64,000 nt of DNA, taken from positions 302 through 64,301 of the forward strand of contig JAAEQR010000202.1 in NCBI GenBank assembly GCA_024231215.1. Direction: 5' to 3'. Below are positions 51,790-61,823 of the stretch, piece by piece; position 1 is the stretch's first letter, and every line of letters starts with the position of its first letter. This stretch comes from PVC group bacterium. Its GTDB lineage: Bacteria > Omnitrophota > Gorgyraeia > B26-G9. The notes under the pieces were generated by a model that worked only from the letters and a program-made list of their open reading frames with translations, was not told the origin of the DNA and did not search any database. Made by a program: the position numbers and the translations under genes.

Positions 51790-51803
51790 CTCATTATAAT
51801 GAG
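51790..51803. promoter_or_regulatory. 14-bp palindrome CTCATTATAATGAG (copy 3)
   Basis: Exact match, 9 nt 5' of the minus-strand gene starting at 51781. Confidence 0.5.
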
Positions 51804-52180
51804 GATTCTGGTATTTGGTCTATATACACCAATGTGGGTTCTCGGCTTTCTTCGTACCTGTAATAACCAATAAATTCACCCTCACACCACGGCTTAATAA
51901 ATTCAAAAAATTTCTCAATTTCGCTCCCATAATTTTTAATATCACCCTTGGCAAGTAGCGAATATTGTTCACTGATTTTATCATAAGTAAGCAGGCCACA
52001 TTCTGTGTTTGGCGTGTAATAGCTACCATTGTTAAATAAATATGGCCATCTCCCCCCTGAGTTTTTAAAACACTCAGCCGAAGCGTCCTTGTCACACATT
52101 GCCCGAAGTATGTCTATTACTTCTTGTGGCGTGTCTGTTTTTAAATCCACGTTTACATAAATTTCTGTGTACATACCCAT
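51794..52180 (-). CDS. hypothetical protein
   Basis: 128-aa ORF. Confidence 0.35.
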   Translation of the reverse strand: MGMYTEIYVNVDLKTDTPQEVIDILRAMCDKDASAECFKNSGGRWPYLFNNGSYYTPNTECGLLTYDKISEQYSLLAKGDIKNYGSEIEKFFEFIKPWCEGEFIGYYRYEESREPTLVYIDQIPESSL

Positions 52181-52190
52181 AATTGTCTCC

Positions 52191-52979
52191 TTATTTGTTA
52201 TGCGGCGATTCTAATAACGCCTTCACCCCTGCCCACGTATAGCCACCGCCACCAAAAATCTTCAACCTATCAATATCCAAACAACCGTCATGGTAATCTG
52301 TATGGTGTTTTCGACAAAGAATCATGGTGGGGCCGGTAATGCTGCTTACCCCAGCAGACCGAAAAATCAGGTGGTGAATATCCAAACCAGTACGGCAGCC
52401 ACATTTTGCACAGACAATGGCTGAATTTTCAAACCAGGCTATGGTAGACAGCTTTTTCATCGCCAATTCTTTTTCATCCTTTGTGAAAAGTCGTAAGGTC
52501 GAAACCGTGCGGTCTACCTTTGATTCATTTACCGGCGGCAGGCCGTTTGCATCTTTCAATTCTTCGGTTATGTCTTGAATAGGTAATTCAAGCAAGGTTT
52601 TCGCCTTATCCCAACCCTGTTCTAGTGCAAACGTTTTTAGTTTGTCAAGCTTATCTTGGGGTGCACCCAATAATTCTTTTGGCGGTACATTAAGTTTTAA
52701 AATATATGTTTCGTATAATCGAATGTATTTATCTACTGCGCTTGACCCAACACCAAAACAGCTATAACAGAATTCACTGTAATTTTCAGCATAACCCCGC
52801 CATTTTTTCCCATCTTTAAAATATTTGGCAATTTCACCAGCACGAAAAATGCATTTAATCATTAACGCCGTAATATAAATAGCATATTTTCTAAGTTCTT
52901 CGGCGTTATCCTCTTCAACTTTTCGGTGTATCGCCAGATCAATTTCTTCACCCCATAGCATTAATTTATTTTCTGTCAT
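52191..52979 (-). CDS. HNH endonuclease domain protein
   Basis: 262 aa. The C-terminal CAKCGC....DIHHLIFRSAG...LCRKHHTDYHDG block is an HNH motif with a zinc-binding CxxC pair. Confidence 0.5.
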   Translation of the reverse strand: MTENKLMLWGEEIDLAIHRKVEEDNAEELRKYAIYITALMIKCIFRAGEIAKYFKDGKKWRGYAENYSEFCYSCFGVGSSAVDKYIRLYETYILKLNVPPKELLGAPQDKLDKLKTFALEQGWDKAKTLLELPIQDITEELKDANGLPPVNESKVDRTVSTLRLFTKDEKELAMKKLSTIAWFENSAIVCAKCGCRTGLDIHHLIFRSAGVSSITGPTMILCRKHHTDYHDGCLDIDRLKIFGGGGYTWAGVKALLESPHNK

Positions 52980-52985
52980 CTCACC

Positions 52986-53351
52986 TCATGCAATATAACC
53001 TTTGCTGAAAATAATTTCATCTTCGTTTGGCTCTTTAAATTCGGGCGGGATTTTAAAATCAACCACCGCATTTAATCTCTTTTTTCTGCACTTCTTGTGC
53101 CAATTATTGTCCGACAATGCGTGTTTGGCACAGCGAATACCACCAGAAACCGGCATATCACATTCTACACACAACCCATTCTTTTTTCTCTTGTCCCGTC
53201 TTTTCTGCACTGACTTCTTTTGGTAAATTAAATGCTTTTCACAATAAGCACGACCGGGCACGACCGGGTTATTGCACCGCTGGCATAATGAGCTTTCTTT
53301 TCTTCTCTTATACCGAAGTCTTTCGTATGCTCGTTTTTCTTCTAACGTCAT
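52986..53351 (-). CDS. zinc-finger protein
   Basis: 121 aa with repeated CxxC(n)CxxH units. Confidence 0.35.
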   Translation of the reverse strand: MTLEEKRAYERLRYKRRKESSLCQRCNNPVVPGRAYCEKHLIYQKKSVQKRRDKRKKNGLCVECDMPVSGGIRCAKHALSDNNWHKKCRKKRLNAVVDFKIPPEFKEPNEDEIIFSKGYIA

Positions 53352-53470
53352 TTCCCTGCCGGTAATTTAAGTTTTTTTAAGTGCCACCCCACCACAACGG
53401 CGAAAACGAGGGCGGCTGCCACCCATATCGCCAGAAACTCTAATATGTAGAGCAGGATTATCATAATTAA

Positions 53471-53632
53471 GCTCCACACGTACACTCTTCACCACAAAAT
53501 ACCATCTTCGCCGCACATGCCTTTTTATGCCCAGCCTTCATATACTTATCAAACTCAATGTCATCTATTATACAATTTAAGCAAAGGCGGTATAAATATG
53601 CCTCTTCTTCCCCACATCTGCGACAATTCATG
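53471..53632 (-). CDS. zinc-ribbon peptide (not in track)
   Basis: 53-aa ORF MNCRRCGEEEAYLYRLCLNC... Coordinates are approximate. Confidence 0.2.
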
Positions 53633-53697
53633 GTTTCACCCCATTTGTATAAATTCTAAATTGTCTTTTTTGCTCATAATATCACCTGTTAAATAAG

Positions 53698-59699: not shown

Positions 59700-60634
59700 T
59701 ATTTCTCCCTTTCTGTAAGTTTAGCGTGGTGGTCACAATGTATATTAACGGGACAAAATTTTTCACAGCGTCTATCGTCCCAGCGTTCTGACATACTGCA
59801 CACAGGCGGCATTTCGCCCGTTTGTACTGCATGTAATAAAGCCGTTCTCTTGGTCTGAAAATACGTTTTAACTGTTTCGTCCGGCAGAATTGGTATTGGG
59901 ATAATATAAGAATTTTTCTCCAATCCCCGGTTTTTGGCTAAGTACGTGCCCCCGTCCCTTACAATAGCAATAATTTGCAGCTTGTGTACCGGCAGTCCCG
60001 TTTTTTCGACCTTTATGCGGTAGTCGTTAAGCTGTAGCGTCCATTCCAGCTTGTCGGCCTTGTTCGGGTCAATGGCAAATTTGTCTACCATTTTGGGGTC
60101 GCCTTTTTGATACAGATACTTGTCTGGGTTGTTGGGATCTTTTCGGCTGGTTTTGTAAACTGCGCCAGTGGGGTCAATAACCTTTTCTTTTACCACACCC
60201 AGTGCCTTTGATACCATATATGAACCACTGCTTTTGTAGTCGGCAAGCGTGGCAACGTCATTTTCAACCTCATATATGTCAAATTGCCCTGATATGCCGT
60301 CTTCTGTCAGTCTCTCCTCAACAATGGTCTGGTCAGTGCCACCTCGTTTCTCTAAATTACTGTGCATGGCAAGCCCCAATAGAAGAAAAACCAGCATTGT
60401 TGGATCTTCGGCATATTCTTTTGTGAGCTTTAAATATGCTTGCCTTGTGCCGGGTAATAGCTCAGTCGTGGTTGTAACCAAATTGTTTAGGTCTTTTTCT
60501 CTCTGTACGCCAAGTGCGGTTAGTGTGTGCCGATTTAGACAGCGTTCAGGCATCCGGCAGCCACCTTCTTTTATACACTCTGTTATTTCTTGGTTTTGTC
60601 CGTCGGGACAGATATAGTATTTTCGCATTTGCAC
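59699..60634 (-). CDS. PD-(D/E)XK nuclease with cysteine clusters (Cas4/RecB-like exonuclease)
   Basis: 311 aa with the motifs GQFDIYE (D) and LADYKSSG (D-x-K). Four N-terminal Cys (C.{10}C.{5}C.{5}C) and four C-terminal Cys (C.{10}C.{3}C.{5}C) resemble Cas4/AddB Fe-S nucleases. Confidence 0.45.
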   Translation of the reverse strand: MQMRKYYICPDGQNQEITECIKEGGCRMPERCLNRHTLTALGVQREKDLNNLVTTTTELLPGTRQAYLKLTKEYAEDPTMLVFLLLGLAMHSNLEKRGGTDQTIVEERLTEDGISGQFDIYEVENDVATLADYKSSGSYMVSKALGVVKEKVIDPTGAVYKTSRKDPNNPDKYLYQKGDPKMVDKFAIDPNKADKLEWTLQLNDYRIKVEKTGLPVHKLQIIAIVRDGGTYLAKNRGLEKNSYIIPIPILPDETVKTYFQTKRTALLHAVQTGEMPPVCSMSERWDDRRCEKFCPVNIHCDHHAKLTEREK

Positions 60635-60834
60635 TCCTTTTCTTGATACATTTTAAAACCGTGAAGTCCTCTAAAAAGGTCAAAGTCTTCTTTGGTTTGT
60701 TTTAAATCTTTTTTTCCATCAATCGCTATATTTGCCAGTCTTTGTGTTAGCTCTAAAACGCTGCCAAATTTATCAACAATGATAAATAATTCAGCAATTA
60801 GCTGCTCTACTGTTTGTTTTTCCACTTCATTCAT
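60583..60834 (-). CDS. hypothetical protein
   Basis: 83-aa ORF. Confidence 0.3.
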   Translation of the reverse strand: MNEVEKQTVEQLIAELFIIVDKFGSVLELTQRLANIAIDGKKDLKQTKEDFDLFRGLHGFKMYQEKECKCENTISVPTDKTKK

Positions 60835-61030
60835 GTTGCCCCCTTCCTAATTGACAATCAGCCAAATTTATTTTTAATATAGCATTATCCTTGGCAATAC
60901 TTGTGCCGACTTGCCGCGCTTTCACAAGCTGTACGCCCATAGTTACAATAATTGCGAAAATTACACATGCGAAAAGCATATGCTTGAAGAAATGGTCTGC
61001 CATGAGTTGCCTCCTTATATATCTATCGGA

Positions 61031-61444
61031 TTAATTTTTAATGTCATAAGGGTTTTTTGCCCAGTCTATGAATTTTTCTTTGCCCATTAAACGTGCTAAA
61101 ATATTACCTACCAGAAACACCATGCGGTCGTCTTCGTTCCAGAACCAGCCATAGCAATATTGTAAAACAGTAATGCTTTGCTGCTTTTGCCCCGGCGTTT
61201 TGGCATTATACTTTTTGCTTGCCTTCAGGTGTGCTTTGTCGTATCGCTTCTTTTTGCAGTCTGGGCAAAATTGCGTGTTAAAGTGTACATCTGCTTTCAG
61301 TTGTACACCACATTCGCAGTATTTCGGCTGCATGTGGGTCTTTATATACTCTTCATCTTGACAATTACGGCATAATCCCTGTCTTATTTTGACATTATTG
61401 CCCCTCACAGGGTATTTGCCGCACTTTTTGCATAGTGGTTTCAT
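61031..61444 (-). CDS. zinc-finger protein
   Basis: 137 aa with CKKCGK...CRNC, CECG and CPDC pairs. Confidence 0.35.
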   Translation of the reverse strand: MKPLCKKCGKYPVRGNNVKIRQGLCRNCQDEEYIKTHMQPKYCECGVQLKADVHFNTQFCPDCKKKRYDKAHLKASKKYNAKTPGQKQQSITVLQYCYGWFWNEDDRMVFLVGNILARLMGKEKFIDWAKNPYDIKN

Positions 61445-61495
61445 GGCGTAACCTCTTCAAAATTAAAATTTTGCCGCATTTGCTTTAATCCTGCC

Positions 61496-61726
61496 TTACG
61501 GCGTTAAAGTCTGCTTTACTTCCTCAAGGTGAAAATTACACCCTGTTTCTTTGTTCTTTATTGTGATTGGTATTTCTTCTGTCATTGCCCGATTTAATCT
61601 GCGCGTAGTTAAAGAATCGTGCTTAGATAATACGTTAATAAGTCGAACTCTGGCCTCTAAACTGTGTTCTCTTGTGCTAAACTCTTTAATTATTTTCCCA
61701 CATTTTACGTCTATTCTATATTTCAT
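61496..61726 (-). CDS. hypothetical protein
   Basis: 76 aa with an AGGAGAAAGG ribosome-binding site. The palindrome lies 84 nt upstream. Confidence 0.35.
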   Translation of the reverse strand: MKYRIDVKCGKIIKEFSTREHSLEARVRLINVLSKHDSLTTRRLNRAMTEEIPITIKNKETGCNFHLEEVKQTLTP

Positions 61727-61809
61727 GGCTGCCCCTTTCTCCTTGTGGTTCGTTTACTCTCATTTTTGATACACAAAATTGCTTATGTATAATACAACAA
61801 TTGCTATTT

Positions 61810-61823
61810 GCTCATTATAATGA
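61810..61823. promoter_or_regulatory. 14-bp palindrome CTCATTATAATGAG (copy 7)
   Basis: Exact match, 84 nt 5' of the minus-strand gene starting at 61726, whose ribosome-binding site is AGGAGAAAGG. Confidence 0.5.

Follow-up and report, generated by a model that had tools for sequence, protein, structure and literature searches.

What does a perfect 14-bp palindrome do in seven identical copies, most of them at gene boundaries, in a single phage genome? The motif, CTCATTATAATGAG, is found in contig JAAEQR010000202.1 of GenBank assembly GCA_024231215.1 (positions 302 to 64,301 of the forward strand), a stretch of 64,000 nucleotides, called here the window, which omits 661 bp of the contig and which, to judge from its genes, is a near-complete tailed phage genome. 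It had been read, in what we call the original prediction, as a combined promoter and operator, the -10 hexamer of which would be occluded by a dimeric phage regulator. The explanation that we favour, tentatively and at slightly less than even confidence, is related to this one: the motif would be a control site at the level of DNA, i.e. a binding site for a dimeric protein laid over a promoter core devoid of -35 element, and would mark internal transcription units.

Copy number, symmetry and position of the motif

That seven identical 14-mers are far beyond chance, as had been claimed, is borne out by the statistics. None is present in 100 dinucleotide-preserving shuffles of the window, base composition predicts about 6e-4 copies per 64 kb (the GC content is 39.9%, given before as 40%), and the 14-bp motif is the top over-represented k-mer of the window. 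A search for mismatch variants, which had been proposed as a check, added a single site, even with up to 2 mismatches allowed. The sites are listed here together with a hairpin close to the last of them; six of the coordinates originally given are exact, and the seventh, 61810, is one base off the true start at 61811.

3778..3791, plus strand: copy 1, fully intergenic, between a stop codon (3773) upstream and a small membrane-protein open reading frame (ORF; 3812 or 3824) downstream
29520..29533, plus strand: variant CTCATTAAAATGAG, 1 mismatch, within ORF 29481-30536
47511..47524, minus strand: copy 2, inside lipoprotein ORF 47481-47777
51790..51803, minus strand: copy 3, holding the TAA stop of gene 51794-52180, 8 nt before ATG 51781
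54149..54162, minus strand: copy 4, intergenic, 9 nt before ATG 54139
55048..55061, minus strand: copy 5, holding the TAA stop of Mom-like gene 55052-55693, 6 nt before ATG 55041
58464..58477, minus strand: copy 6, intergenic, 6 nt before the 5' end of tRNA-Trp
61811..61824, minus strand: copy 7, intergenic, 19 nt after a terminator-like hairpin and 84 nt before ATG 61726
61844..61859, minus strand: the terminator-like hairpin, GCGGCGATTTTGCCGT then GAATAATTTT, just upstream of copy 7

The distribution of the motif across the window is all-or-none, and half-sites are not enriched outside the full 14 bp; both features fit recognition of the whole dyad. The half-site previously reported near position 178 is present, its exact form being the 9-mer TATAATGAG at 180-188. 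The palindrome is perfect over 14 bp in all seven copies and reaches 16 bp at 3777-3792, at 58463-58478 and in the copy at 61811. As had been described, it embeds a TATAAT hexamer, which is matched 6/6 on both strands (top-strand positions 6-11 and 4-9). Such symmetry points to a homodimeric DNA-binding protein, to a hairpin or to a function on both strands, the probability that a 14-bp site read by RNA polymerase alone would be palindromic by chance being about 4^-7.

Under our gene set the window is 93% coding; in six of the seven copies 4 nt or more fall outside genes, which would be the case at only 7.4% of window positions (binomial P ~1e-6). Six copies are clustered in 14.3 kb (47511-61824), five of these in the leftward module. 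Three of them had been placed 9, 10 and 7 nt upstream of start codons; these figures are coordinate differences, and the adjacency is real but the true gaps are 8, 9 and 6 nt. Two other statements hold as they were made: one copy adjoins tRNA-Trp, with a gap of 6 nt to its 5' end, and another lies 84 nt upstream of a gene (ATG 61726) with a normal Shine-Dalgarno sequence of its own, GGAG. Copy 1 is flanked by GAAACG and CAAACC, and is separated by 20 nt, without Shine-Dalgarno sequence, from the small membrane-protein ORF; its 5' flank, GAAACG, is also that of the variant at 29520. The two genes that end within copies 3 and 5 both code for proteins terminating in Ser-Leu. Homologues of the first one, a 128-aa gene, are found at 72-75% identity in other phages, where they end differently and lack the motif; for this reason the latter belongs to the organisation of this genome and not to the gene.

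Another palindrome was noticed 5 nt after the copy at 3778. This sequence, CGTTTCACGTGAAACA (3797-3812), matches the chromosomal parS consensus, TGTTTCACGTGAAACA, at 15 of 16 bases, and its final A opens an ATG; about 0.0015 parS-like sites of that quality are expected by chance. A ParB-like domain, fused to an MT-A70 methyltransferase, is encoded at 56916-58016 on the minus strand.

Search for relatives and for the motif in other genomes

No close relative of the window was found by megablast and tblastn against 50,697 phage records, and scans of IMG/VR with four window proteins gave single shared genes only. More broadly, the phage records, IMG/VR, a set of 5.8 billion proteins, metagenome contigs and species-representative genomes yielded no genome with two or more genes in common with the window. 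For the replication protein the best non-self match has 48% identity, for the large terminase 58%, and the contigs concerned are not syntenic with the window. Repeated palindromes comparable to ours were not seen in the distant relatives.

The original prediction had pointed out that a similar copy density in unrelated phage or host genomes would make the motif a generic repeat. Only single, scattered copies were found. The IMG/VR scan for the 14-mer gave, among the matches listed, single-copy loci only; a search of metagenomes with AAYGCTCATTATAATGAG returned 83 single hits, none related to the window, and a search of 185,579 species genomes with the same sequence returned 24 hits, taxonomically scattered. 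In none of these three sources, again among the matches listed, does a locus have at least two copies, and the number of matches is about what chance predicts. On these matches we reject a generic repeat or a site for a host factor. The 14-mer had no match in a literature search, the counts of uptake signal sequences (USS) and DNA uptake sequences (DUS) in the window are negligible and, to our knowledge, none of the Fur, LexA, CIRCE and uptake-sequence boxes matches the motif. As far as can be judged from sequence, the motif is real, specific to this genome and clearly functional.

Flanks and promoter-like features

While the core of the motif is symmetric, its flanks are not, and their asymmetry agrees with gene direction. 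Read in that direction, the six bases upstream are A-rich and end in CG or TG (e.g. AAAATG, GAAACG), and the fourth base after the motif, which is the seventh after the -10 hexamer, is an A in five copies out of seven. Alignment of the copies reveals no conserved column upstream.

The copies stand at 6 to 84 nt from what lies downstream, and one of the targets is a tRNA. The region of the latter comprises, in order, a hairpin, the motif, tRNA-Trp, a tRNA-like gene, a T-run and then a canonical TTGACA-16-TATACT, so that the tRNA copy looks bracketed like a separate transcription unit:

58382..58457, minus strand: tRNA-Trp (CCA), the sole Rfam match above threshold
58252..58373, minus strand: tRNA-like gene of 122 nt, followed by the T-run, which would form a unit with tRNA-Trp downstream of copy 6

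The range of distances, the copy in front of a tRNA, the terminator-like hairpin before the copy at 61811 and the layout of the tRNA region all favour a transcriptional over a translational signal. Of the combined promoter and operator with -10 occlusion that had been proposed, the siting at boundaries, the 6/6 TATAAT, the dyad and the directional flanks stand, but the rest of a usual promoter, a -35 or a TG extension of the -10, is missing.

The opposite end of the window provides a point of comparison:

157..188, plus strand: promoter-like site, TTGCCA-17-TATAAT then GAG, 29 nt before the first plus-strand gene

This site has the 9-mer TATAATGAG in common with the motif. A second promoter-like site, TTGATA-17-TAAAAT, was read by eye near 87-115, in tandem with the one at 157-185. 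The region 1-217, ahead of the first rightward gene, also contains repeated CCTTG/CCTTA words and is probably an early control region.

A possible dimer-bound promoter core

From these features we infer a promoter activity, a start point and a bound protein, which could be assembled as follows. The 14-mer would act on double-stranded DNA and be peculiar to this phage. Its copies would be placed where internal transcription units begin, for the most part within the leftward module of replication and recombination genes. The first genes would be driven by canonical -35/-10 promoters such as that at 157-185. The centre of the dyad would provide a consensus -10, readable on either strand, that the host RNA polymerase could open without a -35; the first transcribed base would lie some 7 nt beyond the hexamer and be the conserved A at the fourth position after the motif. 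A homodimeric DNA-binding protein, most likely phage-encoded, would bind the perfect dyad and, by covering the -10, switch these secondary promoters off, or on with the help of a recruiting factor. The offset of the two TATAAT hexamers predicts divergent starts about 21 bp apart.

The only recognisable dimeric candidate for this role is encoded in the rightward block:

46303..46599, plus strand: 98-aa HigA-family helix-turn-helix protein (PDB 2ICP, E = 1.5e-8)

The original prediction had named helix-turn-helix proteins as potential binders; a dimeric one is indeed encoded, and the other early proteins gave no family hit. For the 69-aa and 76-aa proteins the AlphaFold models are of low confidence (predicted local distance difference test, pLDDT, of 73 and 64) and the best Foldseek E-value is 0.26. 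The HigA-like gene lies in the late/lysis region, without a recognisable HigB partner, and its product may be a regulatory protein or an antitoxin mimic directed against defence. The operators of phage 434 are 14 bp long. HigA dimers repress through inverted repeats overlapping a -10 (PMC12266136), and the O2 site of Phig, where HigA binds (same reference), resembles our motif in being a perfect or near-perfect inverted repeat of about 14 bp, centred on a -10 or overlapping it; a protein of the same family is, as said, encoded here. Operators of the HigA/434 type differ in that one or two of them are found at the promoter of the regulator itself, whereas we observe seven dispersed identical copies, without -35.

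A number of observations weigh against this explanation. Firstly, no hexamer near TTGACA is found 16-19 bp upstream of any copy in either orientation, the best ones matching at 2-4 of 6 positions, and no copy has the extended -10 (TG at -15/-14), a C and an A occupying these positions in every case; canonical -35/-10 sites are present elsewhere in the window. Secondly, it is unusual for operators that all 14 bases be invariant in seven copies. Thirdly, the copy at 47511 is intragenic: it codes for LLIIMS in the lipoprotein signal peptide, and its flanks match the common pattern in the minus orientation only, i.e. antisense to the late operon. Fourthly, no regulator could be linked to the motif: searches of Pfam, PHROGs and NCBIfam identified none of the early proteins as a repressor, a sigma factor or an RNA polymerase. 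Finally, there is the question of translation. A classic Shine-Dalgarno sequence precedes nearly all genes of the window, and for two of the three copies adjacent to a start it is the motif that supplies it, its GAG being completed by a flanking GA at 54149 (GAGGA) and GG at 55048 (GAGGG); these two copies must therefore be contained in an mRNA started upstream. A usual start, 7 nt after TATAAT, would fall 3-6 nt before the true ATG and would give leaders of that length, without Shine-Dalgarno sequence, in a host that uses such sequences. The leaderless or near-leaderless transcripts that had been anticipated are thus retained in their second form only: truly leaderless ones do not follow from the position of the hexamer, very short leaders do.

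Alternative explanations

Five other explanations were considered; they are taken here in decreasing order of probability. The one that survives best, though we hold it to be unlikely, retains the bound protein and dispenses with the promoter. A dimer sitting where genes meet would be a roadblock to elongation or would silence it, in the manner of stoperators, or the motif would be an architectural or looping site, TATAAT being merely its AT-rich centre. Dyad symmetry, location at boundaries and absence of -35 are all accommodated, and so is the copy in gene 47481-47777, since it lies about 300 bp from the terminator at 47808-47833, where the two gene blocks converge. There is also a precedent: repressors of the L5 type have over 20 binding sites, dispersed among short intergenic spaces, and these stoperators of L5 and Cluster A phages are, like our motif, a conserved short sequence, present at many sites, often touching stop or start codons, and absent from the host (PMC9283540). 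However, they are asymmetric 13-mers, bound by a monomer and dependent on orientation (PMC9283540), while the motif is perfectly symmetric; moreover, neither an L5-type repressor nor an integrase or other lysogeny gene was found in the window, and the phage looks lytic. Chance, besides, poorly explains a 6/6 -10 on both strands together with a conserved A at the expected start.

An action at the RNA level seems improbable as well. In a polycistronic mRNA the motif would fold into a small hairpin (stem of 5 bp, loop UAUA), holding the stop codon of the upstream gene and the next Shine-Dalgarno sequence, and would be a translational operator, a coupling device or a processing site for an RNA-binding protein. 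In two copies the upstream TAA does fall in the loop region, 6-8 nt before the next ATG, and two copies furnish GAGG as Shine-Dalgarno sequence; the flank asymmetry is strand-specific, and the phage encodes many small zinc-ribbon proteins, one with a weak Com-like hit (E = 0.0099). A parallel exists in Cluster K mycobacteriophages: their start-associated sequences, about 13 bp long, are repeated in the non-structural half of the genome at 3-7 bp from the start codons that follow, contain Shine-Dalgarno-like bases and sometimes the upstream stop, and are of no known function (PMC3203893). But they are asymmetric, with a complete AGGAG, and nearly always stand at a start codon, whereas the motif has only GAG (GAGG in two copies), a core that is a -10 consensus, three copies of seven adjacent to a start (6-9 nt) and one before a tRNA. 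Furthermore, the hairpin has a predicted energy of -3 to -7.6 kcal/mol for most copies, mostly no better than that of shuffles. Four of the seven copies are away from translation starts (at the tRNA, at 84 nt, at 20 nt without Shine-Dalgarno sequence, and within a gene), which makes a purely translational role unlikely. Nor does a strand-specific RNA signal need a perfect DNA palindrome or an invariant loop.

A third possibility, to which we give still less credit, is a promoter for a phage-modified polymerase. A divergent sigma factor or co-factor would read, for example, AATGAG as a -10-like element, and transcription would begin some 9 nt past the motif, either on the ATG or at the 5' end of the tRNA, and so be truly leaderless; the palindrome would make it bidirectional. 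Promoter classes of the extended -10 or leaderless kind exist in the Thermus phages phiYS40 and P23-45. The combination of an invariant -10-like element with the lack of -35 is also that of the late promoters of T4 (TATAAATA) and of the gp36-dependent ones of phiEco32 (AATGTA; PMC12276001), which form a second class beside canonical early promoters. In phiEco32 the AATGTA of middle/late promoters is centred at -11.5 (PMC12276001), AATGAG matches it at 4 of 6 positions, and the portal and adaptor proteins of our phage are of the SU10/phiEco32 type. Against this, tblastn reveals no homologue of gp36 (best E-value 1.3) and tblastx no similarity to phiEco32, and neither a sigma factor or co-factor nor an RNA polymerase family was found in the window. 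The motif, in addition, is palindromic, which an element read by a polymerase has no reason to be over 14 bp, its spacing predicts short leaders, and its distance to the ATG varies (6, 8 and 9 nt). As for bidirectionality, symmetric -10 elements do drive divergent transcription, from overlapping opposite-strand hexamers in a symmetric or pseudo-symmetric sequence (bioRxiv 10.1101/2020.01.31.928960; PMC12825309), but the preferred separation of starts there is 18 bp, not the roughly 21 predicted here. A hairpin promoter of the N4 type was also considered and rejected: no virion RNA polymerase and no RNA polymerase family was found in any ORF, and the 1191-aa protein has no RNA polymerase match in PDB or Pfam.

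We regard as very doubtful a fourth scheme, in which the copies would be phage promoters without -35, a dimeric phage protein replacing recognition of that element, and transcription would start a few bases at most from the gene. For the copies at 51790 and 54149, a mini-ORF of two codons (ATG-CCA-TGA and ATG-CTA-TGA, respectively) has its first A at the predicted +1, and its TGA overlaps the true ATG at 51781 and 54139. Leaderless translation of the mini-ORF would then re-initiate on the real gene, and the tRNA-Trp transcript would start 3 nt before the mature 5' end. An ATG at -5 is found in two of the three motif-adjacent genes and in 3 of 115 others (hypergeometric P ~0.004, for a pattern found post hoc). 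The arrangement with a second ATG five bases upstream (AATGNNATG) occurs at five gene starts in all, 27807, 50204, 51781, 54139 and 62794.

Lastly, a recombination or nuclease site, whether a boundary for cassette shuffling like the promoter-stem-loop cassettes of T4 or a target of the helix-turn-helix-HNH endonuclease 52191-52979, is barely credible, for although identical copies delimit cassettes of 0.9-3.4 kb with accessory genes (Mom-like, HNH, tRNA) and the motif is missing from homologues of the neighbouring gene in other phages, the 14-16 bp shared do not suffice for homologous exchange, seven sites cut by a nuclease of its own would not usually be retained by a phage, and the embedded -10 and the flank asymmetry are left unexplained.

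The phage genome and neighbouring features

The genes of the window are arranged in two convergent blocks and are those of a tailed phage. The large terminase is of the GpA type, and the portal and adaptor are of the SU10 type; there are capsid and tail genes, and the lipoprotein lies at the end of the rightward block. The leftward one encodes RusA, an HNH-like protein, a Mom-like protein, a replication initiator, the ParB-MT-A70 methyltransferase, tRNA-Trp and an exonuclease. In the deposit, a metagenome-assembled genome labelled 'PVC group bacterium', the large terminase is annotated as 'phage tail protein'. Given a near-complete phage gene content, this label probably reflects binning and not the host. 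The window proteins include no integrase, repressor, sigma factor or RNA polymerase family according to Pfam, PHROGs and NCBIfam.

At the point of convergence there is a strong hairpin, ATGCCGTCTTTTAATTAAGGCGGCAT (47808-47833), which is probably a bidirectional terminator. Beyond it, the leftward module (47842-63893, minus strand) encodes unusually many small Cys-rich proteins (CxxC, zinc-ribbon-like), examples being 52986-53351, 53467-53631, 53742-53945, 58738-58932 and 61031-61444. The protein encoded by 55052-55693 (minus strand) belongs to the Mom family (PF25680, E = 5e-27), and its presence together with that of the ParB-N/MT-A70 methyltransferase suggests DNA modification against restriction.

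The 122-nt tRNA-like gene lies 11 nt after tRNA-Trp; its acceptor stem is perfect over 9 bp, and its T-arm (GGTTCGAATCC) is canonical. The gene scores 27.7 bits with the Rfam tRNA-Sec model, below the threshold of 47, and is missed by ARAGORN in standard mode; in intron mode the program proposes a tRNA-Ser(GGA) with a 44-nt insert.

Implications

Each of the specific families to which the motif was compared has a defining feature that it fails to show, and we can thus file it only under a broader and known heading, that of phage-specific regulatory repeats at gene boundaries, of which it appears to be a further case. Such repeats have already been reported in many phages, and the motif adds one case to them and no new principle. 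If the copies are promoter/operators, they mark internal transcription units in an uncultured phage lineage without close relatives, and provide a 14-bp handle for finding the phage regulator. A consensus -10 set in a perfect dyad, without -35, would then be a compact natural promoter core, switchable and possibly bidirectional.

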